Shown here: positions 50,367 to 64,000 of the stretch, piece after piece
Numbering within the stretch: the stretch's first letter is position 1
How the letters are laid out: each line of letters begins with the position of its first letter
NCBI GenBank assembly: GCA_000091205.1
Contig: AP006496.2
DNA: 64,000 nt
DNA from: Cyanidioschyzon merolae
Lineage: Eukaryota
Strand: one strand, 5' to 3'
Position numbers and translations under genes: made by a program
The notes under the pieces: model-generated
Database searches by the model: none
The model's input: only the letters and a program-made list of their open reading frames with translations
Told to the model about the DNA's origin: nothing

Positions 50367-52385
50367 ATGCCGTTTCGGAGAGTGCTCATCGCAAACCGAG
50401 GGGAAATTGTGCGACGAGCAGCCAAAACGCTTCGGAAGCTCAATATCGAGCCTGTTGTTGTTTATACCAAAGCGGATGAAACAGGAACACACGTTCGAGA
50501 AGCAGTCCGAAAGCAGCGAATCGAGTCCTACGTCTCCATAAGCGAGGTCGTTGCTGCAGCTCGCAGGGCACGCGCAGACGCGGTCTTTCCGGGTTATGGC
50601 TTCCTCGCAGAGAGAGCCGACTGTGCAGATGCCGTTCAGCAGGCAGGCATGACGTTTATAGGACCGTCTGCACGTGCCATTGCTCGACTGAGCGATAAAA
50701 TTGAAGCGAAAAAGTTCGTGAAAGCGCTCGGCATCCCTGTCGTGCCGGGTTACGTGGATCCACTTGAGCATGTTGACCACGCAGGCTATATTGCCAGAGA
50801 GCTGGGCTTCCCGGTTGTTCTCAAGGCTGCATCCGGAGGCGGCGGTCGAGGGCTCCGCGTCATCCACCACGAACAGGAGCTGCGTACCCAGTTTGAGGTC
50901 TGTGCTGCCGAGGCGAAACAGGCGTTCGGCGACTCCCGGCTGCTCCTCGAGAAATACCTCGAGCCAGTACGTCACATTGAGGTGCAGATACTCGGTGATC
51001 GCCACGGGAATCTGGTTGTCTTTCCAGAGCGCGAATGCAGCATCCAGCGCCATAACCAGAAGCTACTGGAAGAATCGCCGAGTCCGCTCGTCGATAAGCG
51101 CCTGCGCTGGCGACTCTTCCACGATGCCTCCAGAATTGCGCGTGCTATCGAGTACGATTCGGTGGGGACAGTGGAATTCCTCGTGCATGCGCACACGAAA
51201 GAGCATTTTTTTCTGGAAATGAACGCGCGACTCCAGGTTGAACACGCTGTGAGTGAGGCGGTCACCGGTGTAGACCTCATCGAACACATGATTCGGGCGG
51301 CATCGAACCAGGTTGTCGATCTAGATGAACCCGAGAACATCACCAGACTCGAGTTGGATCACGATCCACCGTTTGAAACGTGCCGAATGCTGCGCTCGCG
51401 AGGCTGGGCCCTGGAGGCGCGTATCTGCGCAGAGGGCTGGTCTGCGGGCTCACTGGTACCCAGTACAGGTCGCCTGCACAAGTTTCGCCTTCCCGTATCG
51501 CAACCTGGGGTGCGCGTCGACAGCGGCTACGATGAGGGCGATTCGGTTTCGCCACTCTTCGACTCGCTGCTGACCAAGGTGATCGCTCACGGAGAAACGA
51601 GAACCGCGGCACGTCGAAGACTGGCTCTGGCGCTCGACGCGTTGCTCATTGATGGCGTCGAGCACACAACAGGTCTGTTGCGGGATATTGTCGCCAAGGA
51701 TGCAGATTTTGCGAACGGGATATACACTACCCGTTTTCTGAAAGATTACGCTCTGCATTTCAACGAGTCCGATGCGCGCAGAGCGCTCCAGCTCATGGCA
51801 AATCGAATGAAGGTCGATCCTGGGACCAAGAAACCGATTGCAGCGCTTACCGTCGAATATGGACTAGTGCGCTTTGACCGGGAGCATGACACGGTGGCAG
51901 GTTCGGTTGCGAGTTCTGGAGCCACAGCGCCGCTGCCTCTGCAGGACAGCGACGGACTTGACGCCCTGTCGGACACGCCCGAGTCGCCGTTGTTCGTGAT
52001 GGCACCACGCAGAGCTCCTCGGCTGCTGTTTCGCGGTATGCCTATCACTGTGCAGCGCCTTTTCGATGAAGACGAGCTGATGCTTTGGGAGCGCATCCGA
52101 AAGCCAGTATCAGCAGCGCCAGTCGAGGCGAATGCTTGGCGAGCCCTGCATGCGCCCATGCCCGGTATACTCGTTGCAGTCCTAGTTTCCGTGGGTGACG
52201 AGGTTCAGCCAAAGCAGCCGGTGGCGATACTGGAATCCATGAAAATGCGGAACATGCTCCACGCTCCATCCTTGCCTCCAGGTGCGCAAACACTTGTCGT
52301 TGGTTCGATTCGCGCCGCTGTAGGCACCGTGCTGCGCAAGGGTGACCTCATCCTCGAGTTTTCCTTACCGACTTTTACGACTTAG
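50367..52385 (+). CDS. Biotin-dependent carboxylase alpha subunit (biotin carboxylase + BCCP domain; MCC-alpha/PCC-alpha-like)
   Basis: N-terminal 'RVLIANRGEIVRR'; ATP-grasp 'GGGGRGLRVI'; 'EVQILGDRHGNLV', 'ECSIQRHNQKLLEESP' and 'VEFLV...FLEMNARLQVEH'; C-terminal biotinylation motif 'AILESMKMRN'. Confidence 0.85.
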   Translation: MPFRRVLIANRGEIVRRAAKTLRKLNIEPVVVYTKADETGTHVREAVRKQRIESYVSISEVVAAARRARADAVFPGYGFLAERADCADAVQQAGMTFIGPSARAIARLSDKIEAKKFVKALGIPVVPGYVDPLEHVDHAGYIARELGFPVVLKAASGGGGRGLRVIHHEQELRTQFEVCAAEAKQAFGDSRLLLEKYLEPVRHIEVQILGDRHGNLVVFPERECSIQRHNQKLLEESPSPLVDKRLRWRLFHDASRIARAIEYDSVGTVEFLVHAHTKEHFFLEMNARLQVEHAVSEAVTGVDLIEHMIRAASNQVVDLDEPENITRLELDHDPPFETCRMLRSRGWALEARICAEGWSAGSLVPSTGRLHKFRLPVSQPGVRVDSGYDEGDSVSPLFDSLLTKVIAHGETRTAARRRLALALDALLIDGVEHTTGLLRDIVAKDADFANGIYTTRFLKDYALHFNESDARRALQLMANRMKVDPGTKKPIAALTVEYGLVRFDREHDTVAGSVASSGATAPLPLQDSDGLDALSDTPESPLFVMAPRRAPRLLFRGMPITVQRLFDEDELMLWERIRKPVSAAPVEANAWRALHAPMPGILVAVLVSVGDEVQPKQPVAILESMKMRNMLHAPSLPPGAQTLVVGSIRAAVGTVLRKGDLILEFSLPTFTT

Positions 52386-52837
52386 AGGCGTGCTTCGCCC
52401 CACCAGCAGCGGCATCATTAGAAGTGACAGCGGTACGTGCGCTGCCGGCCTCTGCTGGTACCCCTTCGGGGACGTCCTGCTACCCAGCGCAACCAGAGTA
52501 GGCCGCAGGTAAAGCCAACGAACCGCTTAGGTGACAACTACCAGCGCGTACAGCAGCTGGCAGTGGTGTCCGCCGCCCTCGACTGGAGAATACTCTCTTT
52601 GACCGTGAAACGTTACCGTGAGGTCTGTCGTGCGCGGAGCCTCACTGGGAGAGTCACCACGCCGTGCAACACCTGGAACGCTCGAGGATAGCGTCAGCTT
52701 CAGAGGACTTATAGTGCCCGCACGCTCATCGGTTGATACCGAGTTCTTGAATGTTTAAACTTTCACAGGATACGCGTATGACTGTCTCGTTTGTTGAGGT
52801 GTCGCGTTGACGCACACGGACGCGGGCGCAGCTTTGC

Positions 52838-53647
52838 GTGGCAGAAGCAACGCAGTGCCGCGCTTCCATGTGGATCAATCAGCGCGAGCCAACCGGTAAA
52901 CGACTCCGAGAGCGTGTGCTGGTGCTGCTGCTTGCGACGCTCTGGCGACCGTTTACGGCCATGGCTCGCTTCTTACGCCTCCGTGGCGGGGCAAACCGTG
53001 GCCCAATAGTGCTTACGCTGGACGAGGTTGAGTTTTTGATTGATTGTCTGCCACCGCCACCGGAAGCAAGCGCGTTACGCGGACGCCTGAACGCGCTCCT
53101 GGGCGCACTTCGCAGTGGACAGCCGGTACCGGCGGAGGTCGCAGGAGAGCGTCCTTCCTCAAGGAGCCCTTCGGTGGATCACGAAGTTCGCGGCAGTCGC
53201 TATCGCTCACCAGCACTCACAGTTGATGCGGCAGTGCTTCGTGGACCGCGGGAGGCACTCGAGATCCTGCTTGTGACGCGTGCTCGAGAACCTTTCAAGG
53301 GTAAGCTCGCGTTCCCTGGTGGTTTCGTCGAGTACAACGAGGATCCTCAGGACGCTGTGGTTCGCGAGTTGGCCGAGGAATGTGGTATTCAGGCCAAGAA
53401 CCCGCAGCTCGTGGCGGTGCGAGGACACCCCTCCAGGGATCCGCGGCAGCATGTCGTAACTGTATGTTACAAACTGGATATTGAAGGACAGCATGAGCCT
53501 CGCGCAGGCGACGATGCCGCCAACGCCGGCTGGTACGCCGTCGAGACGCTCTTGAAGAGCCACGAGGGCCGTGCTCGCCTTGCGTTTGATCACGCGGATC
53601 TGTTAGCGCAACTGGCAGCGTGGCTTGACCAGCGACACCGACGCTGA
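52838..53647 (+). CDS. Nudix hydrolase (ADP-ribose pyrophosphatase-like)
   Basis: Nudix box 'GGFVEYNEDPQDAVVRELAEECGI' (Gx5Ex7REUxEExGU). The N-terminal extension may be a presequence. Confidence 0.7.
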   Translation: MAEATQCRASMWINQREPTGKRLRERVLVLLLATLWRPFTAMARFLRLRGGANRGPIVLTLDEVEFLIDCLPPPPEASALRGRLNALLGALRSGQPVPAEVAGERPSSRSPSVDHEVRGSRYRSPALTVDAAVLRGPREALEILLVTRAREPFKGKLAFPGGFVEYNEDPQDAVVRELAEECGIQAKNPQLVAVRGHPSRDPRQHVVTVCYKLDIEGQHEPRAGDDAANAGWYAVETLLKSHEGRARLAFDHADLLAQLAAWLDQRHRR

Positions 53648-53939
53648 GCACTGGAAAACAGTTGCGGGCATCCGCAGAGCGATGCGCTTTGCAAGACCTC
53701 GGAAGGACTGTCGCGATGCAACCGGGGCGTCATTGGAGCATGCCCAATCGATGCTGCTGCTGCTGCTGCTGCTGCACATGAATATGGACCGGGAAAACAC
53801 AGGAATGGCAGGATCATCGATCGACTGCAGCCTTGTTTCCAGCGTAGGATGCGACGCAGTGCCCGGGCACTGGACGCTGCTGAACAGCATGGCGGACGGA
53901 ACTCGGCGGGCGCCGCGCACGATGGTCCGGTTTCTTTGT

Positions 53940-54560
53940 GCGATATCGAAAGAGCATACAGGATCAGGGGCACCGCGAACATCACACCACGAATATGTCT
54001 GCTTTGGATGGTAACGTACAGAAACATAGAAGATTAAGGGCAGTTTGCTTTGAGCGATATCATGCAGAAACGTACAGGATCAGGGGCAGCGCGAACATCA
54101 CACCACGAATATGTGCGCTTTGAATGGTAACGTACAGAAACATAGAAGATTAAGGGCAGTTTGCTTTGAGCGATATCATGCAGAAACGTACAGGATCAGG
54201 GGCAGCGCGAACATCACACCACGAATATGTGCGCTTTGAATGGTAACGTACAGAAACATAGAAGATTAAGGGCAGTTTGCTTTGAGCGATATCATGCAGA
54301 AACGTACAGGATCAGGGGCAGCGCGAACATCACACCACGAATATGTGCGCTTTGAATGGTAACGTACAGAAACATAGAAGATTAAGGGCAGTTTGCTTTG
54401 AGCGATATCATGCAGAAACGTACAGGATCAGGGGCAGCGCGAACATCACACCACGAATATGTGCGCTTTGAATGGTAACGTACAGAAACATAGAAGATTA
54501 AGGGCAGTTTGCTTTGAGCGATATCATGCAGAAACGTACAGGATCAGGGGCAGCGCGAAG
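53940..54560. repeat. 116-bp tandem satellite, about 5.3 units
   Basis: The landmark 'cgtacaggatcagggg' recurs at 53955, 54071, 54187, 54303, 54419 and 54535, an exact 116-bp period. Units are about 98% identical. The array ends where 'gcagcgcgaaGaacgcgcgcg' diverges. Confidence 0.9.
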
Positions 54561-55798
54561 AACGCGCGCGAATCCGATTGTCGATTTGCAGGAACGAGGC
54601 GCCCGCCATCGATGTGCACTGCGACTGCCGCGAGGCGGCATCCGGAATAAGCATCATCAAGGCGCCCTGTTTCTTTACGAAGGTTTGCTGACGTCGCAGC
54701 AAGCGTCTGAGGTAGGTTCAGCACCCAAAGGGTCGCTGGTTCAGGTAAGCGTCTCCCCCTCACCGGAGTAAAGCACGTGCATAGATAGATAGAAGTGAAA
54801 ACGTTTGTGCAGGAACTTGAGTCTGTTCCCTGATTCCTCGTAACATTCGTTTCTCTGGGGATACATCATCAAATTCAATACTTCTCAATCATAAAAAATA
54901 CCGATGCTTTTCCGTGCAGGATTATCAAGGACACTTTCCCGGCGGCATCAAGAAGCCGCAACATACGATCGCCAACGCCTAAAACCCCGGAACGGTAGCG
55001 TTCTACGTGCCCGTTCGCCGCTGGACAATGGTCGATCACCGTACTGGTGCCTCGAATACGTCATTCCTGGATCCCATCGCAGCCAATGCATCTGTTTAGC
55101 GTGCATCCAAGGAGCGCGAGGCGCTCCCAGCAACGATACTGAGTACCAGCGTGGCGTGCGCACATCACACATTGTTGGACAAAACTTTTCCTTTATTCGT
55201 TGACCAGGATCGAGCGCCGTGGAGCTAACCAGACCTCCGGTGAATCGGTTGCCACTCTCCCGATCTTCCATATTCGTCTGCGAGTGGAGAACTGGACAAA
55301 GCAGAGCGCCGAAGCGCGCATCCGTGCTCCGGCGGCGCCGATGTGCCTCATCTGCTTTCCTCGACTGCAGGCAAGAAACGCTGCGTTCAAGAAGCGTCTG
55401 GACACTCAAGGCAGTTCTCGAGAACTTCGACCGTTCCAAACGCGAAAGCGGCACCCGCTGCGTCCTGCTCCCCCGCCGTTGCCAATGTCGCTGCCGCTAG
55501 CGTCCTACGGGCTGCTCCTACCTGTCCAAGCAGCGCTCCGTTTGACTGCTCACCGCTGCTCGTTATCCAAAGTCAAGCCCCAATATTCTGCGCATGCGCT
55601 CGCGCTGCGGACTGCGTCAAAGTTGCGTACCTCACTAGACCAGGTACAAACCAGTGTTCCGGTTGCAGTCGCTCCGACGAACAGGGACCTCTTGGCCTCT
55701 AGCGAACCGGCGGAGACGCTGCGCGCGAGTGACCGACACGTTTCGCGCCACTTGGTATCGCAGCTGAGCGAGCGCCGGGTTGTACTCGCTCGTTCTTC

Positions 55799-58135
55799 AT
55801 GAAAACGAGCGAACAAGTGGAAAGAGGGGTCTGTTCATACTGCGAAGAGCTCTTGTTCGCCAAGAATAAAGCGGAGAGAGAGGCGCTGGCGCATCCACTG
55901 CTGGGTTCGCGTTGGTCGCAGGTTTGGTTGTGCTTGCGATGCCGAAAAACCGTGCAGCAGCTCCGATCGCGTGGTGCTCGTTCGTCACCGGGAAAACGGG
56001 AACGCAACGGCAGACCGTTGCCTGCAACTGAAGTTCGCTGTGCTGTCTGTGCAGACAGTGGTAGGCGTCAGTTATGCTGTCAGCGCTGTGGTGCTACGTT
56101 CTGTAATCGCTGCTTCGGTTGCACGCTGGGCGACTGGCGTACTCCTCCGTGCGCTCTCGGTAGCGAAGGCCTGCGAATTGTGCAGCGTTTGAACGCGATT
56201 CTTTGGAAAAAGGGAGTGGAACCGCTCGATGAGCGTGTTTCCTTGCTACCAGCACCAGCCTGGATGTGCCCCCTCTGTTGTCGTGAGCAGGGTTTGAGGC
56301 TGGCTTTTGAAAGCTGGCTCAAGGACCTGCCGGAAGCACCACAACGCGGACGACTAGCGGAATGGACGACTTTCCGAGAGCGATACGATTATCGCAGCTG
56401 GAACCCGTGGTGGCTGTGGTGCGGCTCGCTCAAGCTGCCTCAGGTTTGGACCCAGTGCAGCGCGGGGAGCAAGCTGACTCAGCTTTTCGACGCGGCCTTT
56501 TCTGGCGACTGGAAGCGCGTCCAGACAGTGCATGAAGACTATGGAAAGCTTTTAACCGCATTGGAAGAGCTGCATATGGCGTCTGGCGGAGCTTTCCCGA
56601 GTCGGCAGCAGCGGTTCCGCCACATGCGAAGGGGCATGGCGGAGCCGCTCCGGCTAAACGCGCGTGCACAGGAACTGCTCGAACGGTACCCGACAGGGCC
56701 TACTGAGTCAGACGCTTTACAGCTTGATTGCACCGAACACGATTCAGGCTTGGTGCATGACTGGTATCGAGTCTACTCCATATTGTGTATCGCGATTCGA
56801 GAGCTGCTCGTGGCGGTTGCGTGGTCGCGGTTAGTCTGCGCATCGGTGGTGCCGGAGTTGTGGTTGCCGGTCCAGCGCCACGTTCTTGAAGCGCTTCCCT
56901 TCAGATGGGATGATCTCTGGAGTCGACACGGGACGATATGTTTCCGCTGCGGACGTCCAGGCGGCAGCGGAGAGCTGCTCCACCGCTGCGATATTCCCGG
57001 CTGCGGCAAAGTCTACCATGCCTCGTGCGTCAGTTGTCTCTCGCGGGCACCCTATTTCACGAACGGCTCTGATTTGACGGAACGACGACACTGGTATTGC
57101 CCCTGGCATTTCGACCGATCTACCGGATGGTACCTGCCCAGCGAGCCCTATCCGAGCGACTTTATCAGCTTGCTGGAAGCGCATGCGTCAGCGCTTCCGT
57201 CCGATACGCTCGAACGTATCCCGTGGCTGGGTGTCGTTCCACGGAGCGATGGCTGGCGGTTACCCGCTGACGAGTCGGCAGCCTCGGAGCACGCGGCAGT
57301 GGATCGATCGACAGATGGGCACAGTTCGGGCACCTTGACGACCACGCAAGTGCCGCCTTTTCGAGCGGTTCAGTGTCGCACGTGCCCGTTCAGTTGCTCG
57401 ATTCCCAACCAAGCAGGTTGGCCAGAAGACCATTCCGAATGGTACGTATGGGATGCAGGTATCATAAGCTGCTGCTCGTGTAGCGTTTGGCTGGAACCTC
57501 CCCAAGGTCAAGATCCGACGGAGCTAGCGTGCGTCGCAGCTACCTGGAAAGATGCAGGTGCTTCGACGCGTGTCCAGCGGGCGACACAACGACACGATAA
57601 GCGACAGCGCCTCGCAACAGCACCAAGTCCGGCATCCAGGCATTCGGTAGCGCCGAGCGCCCCATCCGCAGCAACCTTTGCAAAGATGATTCGCCAGGCC
57701 GCTCACGAGGGCGCAGCGCGCATCCAGGAAGCGAAAGCGCGTGGTGATGTCCCTCTTGTCCAGGGACGCAGCGGGGAGTACATCGACGCCCTCGAGTATG
57801 TTCGAGCGGAATACGAGAAATACGAAAAAGGAAATACAGGTGCCGTCGTTGGAATCATGGCGGCGCTGAAAAGCGCAAATGGAAAGCCGGTCACGTTCTC
57901 GGAATTGACGCTTGAACTCTTACGCAGAGGCTGGTTCGTCACCACAGGCAAAACGCCGCAAATGACAATAGCTGCGTTCTTCAGTACCAGACGCCAACGA
58001 TTGATGGAGCAGGGCCAGACATGCACATGGTTCGAGTGGCTCGGCAGTGCACGCGTACGCTGGTGTCTTGACACGCCTGCCGCGGCCGTCGACGACGAGT
58101 CAAGCGCAGCGCCTGCTGACTCCGCTAATACGTGA
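55799..58135 (+). CDS. PHD/zinc-finger protein (778 aa), possibly with a C-terminal HARE-HTH-like domain
   Basis: Cys/His clusters 'CAVCADSGRRQLCCQRCGATFCNRCFGC' and 'CFRCGRPGGSGELLHRCDIPGCGKVYHASCVSCL' (PHD-like). The C-terminal 'GKPVTFSELTLELLRRGWFVTTGKTPQMTIAAFFS' resembles HARE-HTH. Confidence 0.45.
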   Translation: MKTSEQVERGVCSYCEELLFAKNKAEREALAHPLLGSRWSQVWLCLRCRKTVQQLRSRGARSSPGKRERNGRPLPATEVRCAVCADSGRRQLCCQRCGATFCNRCFGCTLGDWRTPPCALGSEGLRIVQRLNAILWKKGVEPLDERVSLLPAPAWMCPLCCREQGLRLAFESWLKDLPEAPQRGRLAEWTTFRERYDYRSWNPWWLWCGSLKLPQVWTQCSAGSKLTQLFDAAFSGDWKRVQTVHEDYGKLLTALEELHMASGGAFPSRQQRFRHMRRGMAEPLRLNARAQELLERYPTGPTESDALQLDCTEHDSGLVHDWYRVYSILCIAIRELLVAVAWSRLVCASVVPELWLPVQRHVLEALPFRWDDLWSRHGTICFRCGRPGGSGELLHRCDIPGCGKVYHASCVSCLSRAPYFTNGSDLTERRHWYCPWHFDRSTGWYLPSEPYPSDFISLLEAHASALPSDTLERIPWLGVVPRSDGWRLPADESAASEHAAVDRSTDGHSSGTLTTTQVPPFRAVQCRTCPFSCSIPNQAGWPEDHSEWYVWDAGIISCCSCSVWLEPPQGQDPTELACVAATWKDAGASTRVQRATQRHDKRQRLATAPSPASRHSVAPSAPSAATFAKMIRQAAHEGAARIQEAKARGDVPLVQGRSGEYIDALEYVRAEYEKYEKGNTGAVVGIMAALKSANGKPVTFSELTLELLRRGWFVTTGKTPQMTIAAFFSTRRQRLMEQGQTCTWFEWLGSARVRWCLDTPAAAVDDESSAAPADSANT

Positions 58136-59029
58136 CTGGCTGTACCTCTGAGATGCCGAGGACACATATCGGGCCGTGCTCGCGTATTAGAGTCATTGCG
58201 CGCACTGTTTGTGCATGGACCTTGTGAATACGTCATGTCCATCGGGAAGATGTGAAGGAACGCTCTCCAACTGTACCGAGCGACAGCGCAAACGCGGCAA
58301 AGAGATCACCGAGAAGCCATTCGGGCAGCGATGGCGAGCAGTTCGCGTCAGGCGAGCATCGACTGGTTTCCCTAGACGCCAAGCGTGAGCTCTGGCTTGG
58401 GTACTCCATCTGGCAATGAGCGGCGAACGCAATCGCAAGTTGGTTATTATGGAGCGAGGACAACATATAGATCGCAGCGGTGCATGGACTCTGCATTTAT
58501 GGAGCATCGAAACGGCCTGGGAAGCGCTCGTTTCGCTCGTACGTTTATGTAGCAGCGGCGCCGATTTCGGGCCTTGCTGACGGTTAAAGGAGCTCTCGGC
58601 ATCGAGGCTGGCTGCTGGCTCCGCAGCATCGACCTCTGCGAACATAGACGCAGCCGCTCTGCCGTCGAAATTCCTACTTGTCGCATATGGTCGATCCGTC
58701 TTCAACTACGCCCTGCGCTGGGCACAGCGACGCGGTACCTCCTCGAGAGCAAGCCAGGGCATGCGAGCTGCAGCTTCTTGCGTGTGCAAGCGCGCGCGCT
58801 CTCGCGTCGCACCTGTTCGTGACCTGCAGCACGGCAGCGGCTTTCGGCCCCCGCAAACATGCTGCAAGCAAAACATGGCGTAGCGTTCGGCGCCCTACAG
58901 ACCAAGCAGCGCCACACAGCGTGGATGCATCGGATCGGTGGGAGCATTGGCCCTGAGTCGCGCTCGAAGGCATCTGGCCAGAGGCACCAAGATCCATTTG
59001 TATTCGATAGCATGCGTGCTGTTCGAGGA

Positions 59030-59647
59030 TCACTTGAGCAGTCTGCGAGTGAGCGTTGTTTTCGCATAATTTAAGGCTTCGGCGAAACCCTGCTCGCTGA
59101 GGTTCAACACCCGTGGCAGCACTGGTGCGATCCGCTCTCGCACTTCCGTTGGGTCAACTTCCAGAATCGCACCAGAGTCGTCTAGAACCTCGTCTACAAC
59201 TAGTAGCAGCGTTTCATAGTTGCGGAGAATTTGCAGCTCACTGAGCTCTCCGATCAGCGCTCCCAGAGCGTTTGTTAGACAGCTCAGCACCTGCGAAAAG
59301 ACTATCTCGTTCTCCGCAAGTGACACGACCAATAAGAAACAAACGTCAACGCCACTGCGGTAGAGTATGACAAAGTTATCGCTCACGAGCACGTCGTTAT
59401 CACCCAGCAGACCCGCCGCAGAGCCCACTGCCGCGAAGGTACCGGGGTCCAGCCCGGCCGTCCAGTAGCTGTCTGCAGCGGCTTCGGAGCTGCCAGCGCT
59501 TCGCCAGAGCTGATGCAGCTGCTCTTCAAAGTGCTTTTTGGAGCGCTCGTCTGTAAAGCGTTCCTCGTCATAGTAGCGAGCCAGCAAACGTGAGCCCCGT
59601 GCGCTCTGCACCAACAGTACCGACGCTCGTGGCTGCTGCACCGGCAT
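59030..59647 (-). CDS. Coatomer zeta subunit (zeta-COP) / AP-sigma-like longin-fold protein
   Basis: 'SVLLVQSARGSRLLARYYDE' (family 'ilildsdG.rl.akYY'), 'ENEIVFSQVLSCLTNAL' and 'ETLLLVVDEVLDDSGAILEVD'. Start placed at 'MPVQQ'. Confidence 0.6.
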   Translation of the reverse strand: MPVQQPRASVLLVQSARGSRLLARYYDEERFTDERSKKHFEEQLHQLWRSAGSSEAAADSYWTAGLDPGTFAAVGSAAGLLGDNDVLVSDNFVILYRSGVDVCFLLVVSLAENEIVFSQVLSCLTNALGALIGELSELQILRNYETLLLVVDEVLDDSGAILEVDPTEVRERIAPVLPRVLNLSEQGFAEALNYAKTTLTRRLLK

Positions 59648-60803
59648 TATGGTTGCGTTACTCGGGAGACAAGCGCCGCCTTTCCGCAGCGTCTCTCCAA
59701 GGCAGTGATCAGCTGCCACCTGAGATGATTTCCGGGGGATTTCCCTAAAAAGCGAACGACCAATATGCAGGCACTGCGATCACCTGTGCAGCCAAGCACA
59801 ACGGCAACGTCGTACTTTCCGGCAGTAGAGGCAAAACGGTCAAGTGTGCGCGGGTCAGATGCGGCGCGCTTCAGGAGAAGCGGGTAGGCGCGCGCAGTCG
59901 CTTACAGGACTCTTGGACACAAACATATTTTACTGTATATCATGGTATAAGGTGGACAATAAGTTTCCTGCCGATCAAACGGCATCGATGCATCAACACA
60001 GGGTGCGGTGTAGCGCTCAGACGAGCGAGTGCTGCTGGTGCCCAAGGCACGCGACACGCATTCCGCAAAGACGCTTGTACATTCGGCAAGCTGCGAAAAC
60101 GTGTCTGCTTCAGGAATATGGATTCAACGTATCCAGCGACGCATGCTCTCGTGACGAACGATGGATGCATCCAACAGGATGTTTTCGGAGGTGCGTGCTT
60201 GCTGGCGGCAAACGGGAAAGCAACGATCAGAGCGACGCTTCAGATTCCGCTGTGTTCCACGAACGCCACTATTGACTTTCGGCCGAGATGATGAGCACGA
60301 GACACCTGGCGTCCATCATGCGGTAGTCGGATCTCGTACGGGTGCCTGCAGTGATGCTGGATGATATGCCGCCGCTGCGAAACGCTTTGCAGTGCCTCTG
60401 TGGGTGTCGGGCACAGGGCGGATCACGTTGACGCATCTTCTGCAATTCACTGAACAAGAAAACGAACCTTTGGAGGCACGAATATTGGGCGTCATGTGGC
60501 GAAATCCCAGCATACGCCAACTTGTCTGCGGGGAGCGTCCTACGGATGATCTCCAGCGTCGGCGCCTGTACGAGACCGCACGCTGGGCGCCGTCGAGTGC
60601 GCGTGTCTATGAACGTGGCACTAGTACGCGGTCTCGCTGGGAAGCTGCACGTGAGCGCACATCGCGCCTCCCTAAACACACTCGGCAAGTGTAACGGAGC
60701 CTAGTTTCTGCAAAGCTGGCGTGAGCAGTCCGCGCGCGACCGGCTGAGGGGTGCCGGCGCGTTTGGAAAGCGCCACCCACAGACGCACAGGCTCGAGGGT
60801 TCG

Positions 60804-62243
60804 GTGGCGTCCTCCGCTGGTGTGCTAGCAGTGCGACAGATGCGGTGCTTACGCTTTGCAGATGGCCCCTGGAAGCCGTGCTCGTGTGCTTGCTCGTGTC
60901 GAAAGGCGACCACCAAGCGCTCCGCGCAGCGCTCATCTGTGCTGGCTACTGTCGATCCAAGCCGCTGGTTGAACCTGTCGAAGATTAAGGGCGCGCTCTC
61001 TAAGTCGATACAACACTTTCGACCACGGGTATGGAAATTGCTTCAGTTTTCAACGCTTGCGTATGCTGCCGTCGCGGGAGCGACAAGCATGCTGACTTGG
61101 CTCGCCACGCTGCAACCGAGCTTCTCACTCTATGCGCTCGTTCCGTTTACGTATCGTGTGCAGCGCCGACTGCACGCGCTAGCCCTCGACCACCCGGACC
61201 TGGAGACTAAACAATCGCAGCCGGCACCTGCCGTCTCAAAGGACGCCTTGGGTGCAGTGCACCGCGCGAAACAAAAGTTTGCGGATACGGTGCTGAAGCT
61301 GCTACTCGAAACACCGGGTATGCCGCCTGATCTGCAGGTTCAGGTCCATGTGGAGCGCGTACCTGCGAAACCGGCTTACCCAAACGAGCCCGAATTTGTA
61401 TTTGCCATCGACGACGGGCCGCTTTTCCAGACTCGCTGCGTCCAGCGCATAGCTGGACCGGTATCGTCCGAGACCGAGAACCCCTCTTCGTTTGACGTGT
61501 ACGTCTCAGCCGAAATGGAGCCTGCACTCATTCCCGCGGCATTGTCGCATGCTTTGGCGCATGGCGTGGCAAATCATGCGGCTGAGGCACTTAGTGCGCT
61601 CTTTTATGGTGCAGTCCCGTTGAGCGCCTGGCGTCCAAGATGTCTTGTGAACATGATAGCACCTGCTTCGCTGGCTGCTCGCTGGGGAGGCGGCACAGCC
61701 GTCGCTGCCCACTGGGTCGTCGACACCTTGCAGCGCTTCCGCGCGCCCCTTGTGGCGTTGTGCATGCGACCTGTGCAGCGGCGTAACGAATTCGAGGCCG
61801 ACTTGATCGCTGCAACGATACTAGCTCGTATCGGCCTTGATCCTGCGAGCATGCTGGAGCTTCTGCGACACGCCGAGGCCGGTACGACGCTGCGGCTCAC
61901 CAGCGATGACAATGGCGGCCGTCATGCGGTGCACGCTGCAACCTGGAACCGTGACGCGCTGCCCTGGGCTCGCTATCCTTCCATTCAACGTCGCCGGCGT
62001 TCTCTGGAGCCACACATGGAACGTCTCAAGCGACTTGAAGCATTGGTTCAGAAAAGCGAGGGTGCACGAAATCGTCGCATTGCTGTCCTACGAGACCAGG
62101 TGCAGCGGGAGCTGGCTCGTTTCGAGCGTTCATCACGTTCGGCTCCGCAGGCTTCGACCGAACAGGGGCGTGTCTCAGAGCGGCGCAGTGCTGTTTCGGG
62201 AGACGCAAGTCCTGCATGGGGTTCATCCGCACAGGCGCGGTAG
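60804..62243 (+). CDS. Oma1/M48-family metallopeptidase homolog with HExxH changed to HALAH (predicted inactive)
   Basis: 'ALSHALAHGVANHAAE' aligns with the Oma1 'gHEiaHvvarHsaE' motif but has Ala where the catalytic Glu sits. The downstream 'RRNEFEADLIAATILARIGLDPASMLELL' matches the M48 third-ligand 'sE.eAD..gl.ll..AGydP' block. Confidence 0.55.
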   Translation: MASSAGVLAVRQMRCLRFADGPWKPCSCACSCRKATTKRSAQRSSVLATVDPSRWLNLSKIKGALSKSIQHFRPRVWKLLQFSTLAYAAVAGATSMLTWLATLQPSFSLYALVPFTYRVQRRLHALALDHPDLETKQSQPAPAVSKDALGAVHRAKQKFADTVLKLLLETPGMPPDLQVQVHVERVPAKPAYPNEPEFVFAIDDGPLFQTRCVQRIAGPVSSETENPSSFDVYVSAEMEPALIPAALSHALAHGVANHAAEALSALFYGAVPLSAWRPRCLVNMIAPASLAARWGGGTAVAAHWVVDTLQRFRAPLVALCMRPVQRRNEFEADLIAATILARIGLDPASMLELLRHAEAGTTLRLTSDDNGGRHAVHAATWNRDALPWARYPSIQRRRRSLEPHMERLKRLEALVQKSEGARNRRIAVLRDQVQRELARFERSSRSAPQASTEQGRVSERRSAVSGDASPAWGSSAQAR

Positions 62244-62319
62244 TCATTGGCGTTAGGTTTCCGGGGCTGTGGCTCCAGCGCGCGCTGCAAAACCCGCGAC
62301 GGGCTGATATATCCGGCAC

Positions 62320-63690
62320 TGAACTGGAGGCTATTTTCCCGCCTTTTGATTTTTCCGAGGTTTTTTTCTGGAGATGTGCATGCTCGACGTTCGACGTGCA
62401 GCAGTAAAGGCGTACCGTTTCAGAGGTCGTTTACGGAATCTGTGACTTGCTTTCGGAGCGGCGCGTTCGGGTCTACCGCGCTTGGCACTCGGAACGTCAC
62501 CTGTAGCAACATGACTCGGTATGCACACGAACAAGCGCTCGCGGAATAACAGACATGATTATCCTTTTCAGACGCGTAAGACTCCAGCATTTGCCTTGCC
62601 TTGCGTGCAGCATGCTCGAATCGCACACATTCTTCAGGTTTTGGATCAGTCGATCCCGAGGCAACTGACGGGCGCTGCCATTCGCGCCACTTTCATACGG
62701 AAAGCGGAATCATGGGTGTCGTCGCTTGACGACTACTTCGAGCGCTCATGCCTCAAGTTCACAGAACATGTCACGTCAAGTAATCGACTCCGTTTTGGAA
62801 GACAAATGCTCCCCGCTTCGAGATCATCGACGGAACCGCGTTCGACAAGAACATCATACCTCAAAGCGGATATGCGCTGGGACGCTGTGGTTGCTTCTAT
62901 TTGCATGGAAAAGTGTCTGGGACACACCGAGTTGCGTCATCGTAGCGATCGCTTCCAGTGGGGCATGCGTCATCGCTTAGCACGAAGGGATCGGAGACTG
63001 ATCGGAATTTCTCGACTCCATCTCCAGCCTGGATATTTCTTCGAGGACTTGTTTCATCGTAAACAACATCGTTTGCCGCCAATACCCCACTGAACGGAGC
63101 AGTGACCGCTCACGCGTGGGCAGCGGACACTGTACTCGTCGACGAGATCGTCCAGAACAAGCCTTGCGATCGCTGGGTACGGTACCGAGCACAGCACCAG
63201 AGCAAGGCGTCGACGGGCGCCTGCTGGACACGTCAGGTGTACGTACTGGTCGATGATGCAACCGTCCACGTGCCACAGCGCGGATCTCGGAGGCGACGGT
63301 CTGGTGGCCATACGAAAACACCTGACCTCAGTCATTTGTCACAGCTGCAAAGCGCGCACCGAGGTTGTAAACGCAGAAAAAGAACACTGCAAGCGCAGTG
63401 CTGATCGCAACATTCGTATGAGCCTGGTATGCGTCGGCAACAGCCGGAGGCGGAGAAACCGGGACCTGCACGCTACCATCAATATTTGTCGTCCAAAGAC
63501 GACAGAACTGGACGCAGATGCATCAAGACCAGTGTATTGGAATCCGGATATACGGGCAACAGAGAGGACACACACACACTGAAACAGTCATCGACGAAAA
63601 ACGCGTGCAAACGCTTCTGTCGATGACACTTGCAAGGCATCCAAACTTTAGCGTGTACGCCCAAGTTAGCAAAGCAGACCTGTTCGACTT
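62320..63690 (+). mobile_element. 1.36-kb repeat, right copy (R), inverted relative to L; TnpB/Fanzor-like ORF with the same two in-frame TGA codons
   Basis: The 190-aa ORF 62521-63093 is identical to 46203-46775. 63253-63582 reads 'LTSVICHSCKARTEVVNAEKEHCKRSADRNIRMSLVCVGNSRRRRNRDLHATINI'. The frame is continuous, with TGA at 63091 and 63103. Confidence 0.5.
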
Positions 63691-64000
63691 CATATACGCC
63701 CACACACGGATATACCAGGCATTCGTTTGTGTGCAGGCGCTCTGCGCTGCACTGCTACCGCCATCGCTGTGTCGCATTCTCACCGAAACGCCGTCCAGTG
63801 TTTGAAATCCCACTCCCTGTGTGGAAGCGCTGTCAAGCAGCACACCGACTGCGACACCCGGTTCGCGGACGGCGTGCTGCGCTCAGGGCGCCGCCCTGCG
63901 TGCCGCGGCAGGCGTGTCGCTCAGCAGGAGCCCATCAACATACGCAACGGGGTCAAAGTCGCGCAGATCGTTGAGCTTCTCGCCAACACCCACAAACTTC

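Follow-up and report, generated by a model that had tools for sequence, protein, structure and literature searches.

M48 proteases, among them Oma1, HtpX, Ste24 and BepA, are membrane quality-control enzymes. How much of what they do needs no proteolysis is under debate, and BepA is the most concrete case. In other peptidase families, protease folds minus their catalytic residues are kept as binding or scaffold subunits, as in plastid FtsHi (M41), the iRhoms (S54) and proteins of the MPP-alpha type (M16). Pseudoproteases are a well-known category, and the M48 case described here is new to the literature searched, in which we found no earlier description of a natural M48 or Oma1 pseudoprotease (including under Cyanidioschyzon with OMA1 or M48, and under M48 non-peptidase homologue) and no mention of the gene in question, CMN248C. 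This gene lies in a 64,000-nucleotide stretch of red-algal nuclear DNA from contig AP006496.2 of Cyanidioschyzon merolae (GenBank assembly GCA_000091205.1), which we call the window and in whose coordinates all positions are given. Judged from its sequence, CMN248C very probably encodes an M48 homolog that is catalytically dead and that selection has maintained, in related red algae of hot springs as well: a catalytic residue is lost, the fold is kept and the coding sequence is under purifying selection, the combination by which a pseudoenzyme is recognized. It parallels FtsHi, the iRhoms and MPP-alpha in concept only, as these belong to different families.

The best-described system for comparison is Escherichia coli BepA (YfgC). 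Its third zinc ligand is E201, and the substitution E137Q abolishes its proteolysis (PMC7950410). The HPx4R motif of its active-site plug is conserved across the Pfam family PF01435, and the plug His (H246) is a fourth zinc ligand and an autoinhibitory off-switch (PMC7950410; PMC8423444). BepA also has a non-proteolytic, chaperone-like mode, in which substrate is held at the edge strand beside the repressed active site (PMC8423444).

CMN248C shares with BepA the His-His-Glu residues of the zinc site, where its NEFEAD motif pairs with NEQEAD of BepA in the family profile alignment, and the frame of the plug (YPx4R, against HPx4R in BepA). Unlike CMN248C, however, BepA is a real protease of the bacterial periplasm with both the HExxH Glu and the plug His intact. 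The C-terminus of BepA is a TPR domain, whereas that of CMN248C is a predicted two-helix coiled coil, and the two proteins are only about 13 per cent identical. A Pfam scan of CMN248C at E ≤ 10 found no TPR family, and CMN248C is therefore not of the BepA type. The M48A enzymes ZMPSTE24 and Ste24p are seven-transmembrane barrels of the endoplasmic reticulum and nuclear membrane, whereas in CMN248C no more than a single weak hydrophobic anchor is seen.

The active site of CMN248C

The open reading frame (ORF) that contains CMN248C runs uninterrupted on the plus strand from 60804 to 62243. The GTG start listed for it is an artifact of the bacterial ORF rule, and its first in-frame ATG is at 60840 (M13); residue numbers are nonetheless counted from 60804. 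The 467-amino-acid product is identical to CYME_CMN248C of C. merolae 10D (BAM81333.1 / XP_005537369.1; also our entry P0011). The gene and its active-site motifs are the following:

60840–62243, plus strand: coding sequence of CMN248C, 467 amino acids and a stop; M48-family pseudoprotease candidate, Pfam PF01435
61548–61562, plus strand: HALAH; predicted zinc ligands H249 and H253 kept, general-base Glu replaced by A250 (GCT, 61551–61553)
61785–61802, plus strand: NEFEAD; E329 is the putative third zinc ligand, equivalent to E201 of BepA in the profile alignment to BepA chains 6ait/6sar
61974–61994, plus strand: YPSIQRR, a degenerate HPx4R active-site plug; P392 and R397 kept, the 'switch' His replaced by Y391

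Membership in M48, which a first-pass annotation made from the sequence had proposed, is borne out by a match to the Pfam profile Peptidase_M48 (PF01435; 28.7 bits, with the cut-off at 20.3; E = 1.4e-6) that aligns protein residues 244–414 with profile positions 66–182. The orthologs described below also exceed the threshold (29–56 bits), the best of them being P0005 (55.8 bits), and the fold is that of a gluzincin of the M48 type. NCBIfam gave no match for the protein, a phmmer search of it against the PDB sequences was likewise empty, and a profile search against the PDB matched only the E..EAD helix of BepA.

The column assignment was examined in an alignment of 11 sequences: four Glu-less family proteins, P0005 (from the read-archive contig L003) and six canonical relatives. 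PAALSHALAHGVANHAAEALS of CMN248C aligns without gaps with canonical SAVLGHEIAHNIAQHAAERMS and AAVLAHEMGHLVANHIAERLT, and likewise with six more HE..H proteins. H249 and H253 are invariant in all 11 sequences of the alignment, as are E329, E331, A332 and D333, whereas the catalytic position is Glu in P0005 and in all canonical relatives and Ala in CMN248C. The identification of H249 and H253 as the HExxH histidines, of E329 as the third ligand and of A250 as the residue at the general-base position is thus sound as a reading of the alignment. The first-pass annotation had recognized both histidines, the distal Glu and the Glu-to-Ala change, all of which hold at family spacing, and no different His pair takes the HExxH position in the profile. 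Its placement of SHALAHGVANH at 61545–61562 fits SHALAH only; the full string ends at 61577. Metal is probably still bound, and the groove probably used for polypeptide segments, because the ligands and the helix around them are strongly conserved.

A second lesion, which the first-pass annotation had missed, affects the plug. It reads Y391-P-S-I-Q-R-R397 in CMN248C, and P392 and R397 are invariant (11/11). The plug His is present in all seven Glu-containing sequences (that of L003 and the six canonical ones) and is replaced by Y/Y/Y/A in the four Glu-less proteins, the Ala being that of Cyanidium. We screened for columns with one residue in six or more of the seven Glu-containing sequences and another in three or more of the Glu-less four. 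Only E250 and H391 agree in 7/7 and differ in 4/4; R257, L322 and R184 differ in 4/4 against agreement in 6/7, and some edge-strand positions pass only the looser criterion. The screen gave no candidate for compensation, in the sense of an acidic residue that all four Glu-less proteins share at a known active-site-lining position. The sole acidic column that is invariant in these four and different elsewhere is D231, in the strand preceding the HxxxH helix. Joint loss of the catalytic base and the off-switch would be the outcome expected from relaxed selection on proteolysis.

Three of the columns found by the screen are described here for themselves. At N257 (61572–61574), the Arg of canonical H..ARH has become N/N/N/L in the Glu-less proteins; at R322 (61767–61769), the Leu ahead of the E..EAD helix is Arg in all four; and at E184 (61353–61355), a conserved Arg has become E/E/E/D.

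Orthologs and the timing of the Glu loss

We searched 1.84 billion cluster representatives exhaustively with HMMER and recovered a very small family, adding two further members and two weak canonical matches, and a second, word-indexed homolog search with a four-sequence profile yielded nothing new. The comparison of related algae that the first-pass annotation had called for gives the following states of the HExxH motif across the five family members:

Cyanidioschyzon merolae CMN248C: HALAH, codon GCT
Cyanidiococcus yangmingshanensis CCYA08G2303: HSLAH, codon TCG
related metagenome lineage: HSLAH, codon TCG
Cyanidium caldarium CDCA16G4268: HQLAH, codon CAG
read-archive contig L003 (ortholog P0005): HELAH, codon GAG

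CMN248C is expected not to cleave peptides, because Ala, Ser and Gln cannot act as a general base. Within C. merolae, HALAH is found in every one of 11 near-identical variants, drawn from about 100 independent contigs in assemblies of genomes, metagenomes and read archives, and six environmental contigs keep the full ORF with the same ATG. The codon GCT is two substitutions away from GAR. Glu is missing in syntenic orthologs at 33–57 per cent identity, in all of which the reading frame is intact.

Orthology is supported by gene order. An adaptor-sigma gene (minus strand), the M48 gene (plus strand) and a gene for an SRP54-type GTPase (minus strand) follow one another in C. merolae, Cyanidiococcus, the metagenome lineage and Cyanidium, and the M48 and SRP54-type pair is also found on L003. 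The anchors in the window are:

59030–59719, minus strand: clathrin-adaptor small-chain family gene, upstream anchor (Pfam PF01217, E = 2.7e-16)
63916–63999, minus strand: C-terminal end of the SRP54-type GTPase gene, downstream anchor (tblastn, 93 per cent identity to the Cyanidiococcus neighbor)

In a neighbor-joining tree with six canonical outgroups, the five family proteins form a clade (bootstrap support of 100 per cent), within which the four Glu-less proteins group together (97 per cent). Because of this grouping, the phylogeny favors a single loss of Glu before the split of Cyanidium from the Cyanidioschyzonales, presumably followed by drift at the position (A, S, Q). For the Glu and the plug His alike, the simplest placement of the loss is in the ancestor shared by Cyanidium and Cyanidioschyzon/Cyanidiococcus.

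The only Glu-retaining ortholog of the family (HELAH, with HPSAEVR at the plug) is that of L003 (1–3722, Logan SRR31152685_2317), an intron-poor algal contig of 70 per cent GC on which a light-harvesting complex (Chloroa_b-bind) gene adjoins the M48 gene and an SRP54-type gene is also present. Its SRP54-type protein is about 58–60 per cent identical to the counterparts in Cyanidium and Cyanidiococcus, because of which L003 probably represents an unsampled lineage of cyanidiophycean grade.

Selection and conservation

The ratio of non-synonymous to synonymous substitution rates (dN/dS) by the Nei–Gojobori method (NG86) is 0.19 between C. merolae and Cyanidiococcus and 0.16 between Cyanidiococcus and the metagenome lineage (X3), values that indicate purifying selection and that are approximate, as intergeneric synonymous divergence is saturated (proportion of synonymous differences, pS, 0.64–0.76). 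Synonymous differences are present within the motif codons themselves. Identity to Cyanidiococcus varies along the protein as follows:

HxxxH helix: 84–87 per cent, the best-conserved segment
stretch up to the Glu helix: 80 per cent
NEFEAD helix: 72–75 per cent
C-terminal helices: 61–67 per cent
linkers: 14–30 per cent

In the six environmental contigs, six within-species amino-acid polymorphisms were found (A35V, S53N, L80F, S145P, D384N and G466A), all of them outside residues 146–383. By these sequence comparisons, the metal-site region is the part of the protein most protected by selection.

Protein architecture and nearest relatives

A first AlphaFold2 model built from five sequences was poor (predicted local distance difference test [pLDDT] of 56), with weak Foldseek matches to M48 structures, and was replaced by a model built from the 11 sequences. 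Together with the alignment, it divides the protein as follows:

60840–60974, plus strand: basic, Ser/Thr-rich N-terminal extension (residues 13–57; nine R+K and two D+E in the first 45 amino acids; pLDDT <50; poorly conserved)
61029–61118, plus strand: predicted, moderately hydrophobic N-terminal anchor helix (residues ~76–105; Kyte–Doolittle peak of 1.40 at LAYAAVAGATSMLTWLATL; modelled helix 58–102)
61140–61157, plus strand: juxtamembrane VPFTYR (residues 113–118), common to the canonical 'VPxTgR' relatives; P114 nearly invariant in the 11 sequences
61248–62003, plus strand: M48 (gluzincin) catalytic-type domain (residues ~149–400), made up of a helix, a three-stranded sheet, the HxxxH helix, the Glu helix and the plug
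61431–61448, plus strand: predicted edge strand TRCVQR (residues 210–215 in the model), at the place of the canonical 'NAF..PGG' strand
61983–62141, plus strand: two long C-terminal helices, HMERLKRLEALVQKSEG.RNRRI... (residues 394–446; modelled at 394–417 and 421–446, pLDDT 90–97)

The N-terminal extension looks like an organellar presequence in composition. It contains a Cys-rich run, CSCACSC (60876–60899), that the orthologs of Cyanidiococcus and the metagenome lineage do not conserve. A hydrophobic N-terminal segment equivalent to the putative anchor is present in the orthologs and in the canonical relatives of about 270 amino acids. In the edge strand, the canonical N and A are replaced at columns 209 and 210, and C212 is invariant within the family. 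A variable loop separates the M48 domain from the C-terminal helices, a pair that has no counterpart in the canonical ~270-amino-acid proteins P0020–P0027 and that the model suggests is a probable family-specific coiled coil.

The nearest matches outside the family are weak (E of 1e-5 to 1e-2) and are short eukaryotic or metagenomic M48 proteins of about 270 amino acids. The closest named one, itself a weak match (E = 2.9e-4), is a 'metalloendopeptidase OMA1, mitochondrial' (JGI, P0021), and another is an 'M48X' protein from Achlya. Because these relatives score best against models of BepA and LoiP, the sequence comparison places CMN248C in the Oma1/LoiP/BepA-like part of M48, and of the Oma1/M48 label given in the first-pass annotation only M48 is established. 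P0021, the M48X protein of Achlya hypogyna (P0023) and a Dictyostelium purpureum protein (P0027) resemble CMN248C in having the N-terminal anchor, VPxTxR, the HxxxHxxxxHxxE helix, E.EAD and the P...R of the plug. In contrast to CMN248C, all relatives of this type have HExxH, NAF..PGG and HPx4R, and the ~270-amino-acid proteins are without its linker at residues 126–150, its loop at 361–389 and its C-terminal coiled coil.

Alternative explanations for the missing Glu

The first-pass annotation had left open whether the protein is a zinc-binding but non-proteolytic regulator or the product of a recently inactivated gene, and had considered a single-base error (GAG to GCG). It is very improbable that CMN248C is a decaying unitary pseudogene or that its Ala is a strain-specific change or a sequencing error. 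A catalytic residue is indeed missing, and the protein is annotated only as hypothetical; but C. merolae 10D and six environmental contigs all have an unbroken frame, HALAH recurs in the 11 variants from about 100 contigs, and GCT lies two steps from GAR, with TCG (Ser) and CAG (Gln) in its place in the orthologs. Recent inactivation is also contradicted by the absence of Glu across the four syntenic genes, whose frames are intact and which include orthologs at 33–57 per cent identity, by the dN/dS of 0.16–0.19, and by the position of the active-site helix as the most conserved segment. With recent inactivation rejected, the non-proteolytic, zinc-binding option is the one that the sequences favor. 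Still harder to credit is a misassigned His pair, with the true HExxH equivalent elsewhere or the protein not belonging to M48. The modest Pfam score and the empty phmmer search against the PDB might be taken that way, but the protein has a single HxxxH with E..EAD at family spacing, the alignment is gap-free over at least 20 residues against seven canonical HExxH sequences, and P0005, with its much higher Pfam score, has HELAH in the same column.

It is also improbable, though less so, that CMN248C is a working metalloprotease or other zinc hydrolase in which water is activated non-canonically, by another acidic residue, by Y391 or by a base that a partner supplies. Constraint within the protein is at its strongest on the three zinc ligands and the helix around them, E261 (of HAAE) and E331 are invariant or nearly so, and Tyr can serve as a zinc ligand or transition-state stabilizer in astacin-type enzymes. 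However, canonical enzymes have E261 and E331 too and need the HExxH Glu all the same, Y391 is Ala in Cyanidium, and no acidic residue has been newly fixed near the site in all four Glu-less proteins. The position itself varies among Ala, Ser and Gln, none of them a general base, the plug His was lost together with the Glu, and changing this Glu to Gln or Ala is the standard way to make a protease-dead BepA or ZMPSTE24 (E336A in PDB 2ypt). A special case of the maintained, inactive homolog would be a cyanidiophycean ortholog of mitochondrial OMA1, turned into a non-catalytic inner-membrane factor after its proteolytic role became dispensable in reduced cells. This identity is possible but rather unlikely: the nearest out-of-family matches are eukaryotic proteins of about 270 amino acids, one of them named OMA1 (JGI) and one an oomycete 'M48X', Oma1-type proteins have a similar HxxxHxxxxHxxE signature and N-terminal anchor, and the N-terminus is basic in CMN248C. 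Against it, the out-of-family similarity is weak, the relatives concerned score better against the BepA and LoiP models than against anything else, P0021 has a lipoprotein-like LVAC signal and may be bacterial, and a plastid location is equally possible.

Possible function and significance

We return to the reading of CMN248C as an ancient, maintained M48 pseudoprotease that is anchored and binds without cutting, which as a whole we consider reasonably likely. The protein would be imported into an organelle, where its N-terminal helix may anchor it in a membrane. The retained metal-site groove and the edge strand would bind unfolded or hydrophobic polypeptide segments, and the protein may act as a holdase, assembly factor or adaptor, as though fixed for good in the protease-off, chaperone-like state known from BepA. 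Oligomerization or partner binding is the probable role of the conserved C-terminal coiled coil. Any specific binding or scaffold mechanism of this kind, drawn by analogy with BepA, is tentative and rather less likely.

Several points weigh against this interpretation. The saturated synonymous divergence makes dN/dS approximate, and the within-species counts are tiny (2–4 synonymous and 2–4 non-synonymous), so that the ratio of non-synonymous to synonymous polymorphism (pN/pS) is underpowered. The 97 per cent support for the Glu-less clade could be inflated by convergent relaxation following independent losses. The NAF..PGG edge-strand motif is not conserved in the family, the Glu-retaining member included, and BepA-style substrate binding is therefore an analogy only. 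Furthermore, E137Q BepA gives only partial support to LptD maturation and acts as a dominant negative (PMC7950410; PMC8423444), so that an M48 protein without its Glu is not automatically a good chaperone.

As a speculation that we hold to be rather doubtful, a whole clade within the Cyanidiophyceae may have made a factor that works solely and permanently as a chaperone out of the one Oma1-like organellar M48 protease it had. The Glu and the His switch would have gone together, with the zinc site and the groove retained along with a coiled coil gained anew. If so, it would be the first case of a natural lineage of M48 pseudoproteases and a eukaryotic-organelle counterpart of the protease-off mode of BepA. 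A lineage without the catalytic base and the His switch, and yet with a constrained metal site, would amount to a natural separation-of-function allele, although its scope is narrow, that of one small clade. C. merolae permits targeted gene replacement, and localization, a knock-out and an A250E/Y391H reversion are feasible in it.

Annotation and flanking sequence

Databases label CMN248C as a hypothetical protein or as a 'Peptidase M48 domain-containing protein'. On metagenome contigs, prokaryotic gene callers give it GTG ('V') or internal-Met starts, which yield versions of 384, 434, 445 and 473 amino acids (entries P0001 and P0009–P0019). The name 'Zn-dependent protease with chaperone function', given to one of them, is an annotation artifact, as are the lengths. 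The annotation of CMN248C should be corrected to flag a non-peptidase homolog in place of a 'Zn-dependent protease'.

The gene lies in a long syntenic block (50367–64000 of the window) that is common to C. merolae and Cyanidiococcus and partly to Cyanidium. Its order is biotin carboxylase, NUDIX, PHD_NSD protein, adaptor sigma (minus strand), M48 and SRP54-type GTPase (minus strand), with an ABC transporter next in the relatives. Scans of the flanks of the M48 gene for tRNAs and Rfam families found nothing. Between the M48 stop and the SRP54-type gene lie 1.67 kb in C. merolae (62244–63915), against only 0–200 bp in Cyanidiococcus and Cyanidium; the interval contains neither a tRNA nor an Rfam family, and tblastx shows no similarity between it and the orthologous loci. 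Gene calls on metagenome contigs include an ORF of this interval (62521–63093, plus strand, 190 amino acids), which has no homolog. The interval is more polymorphic than the M48 coding sequence (10/830 versus 4/1404).

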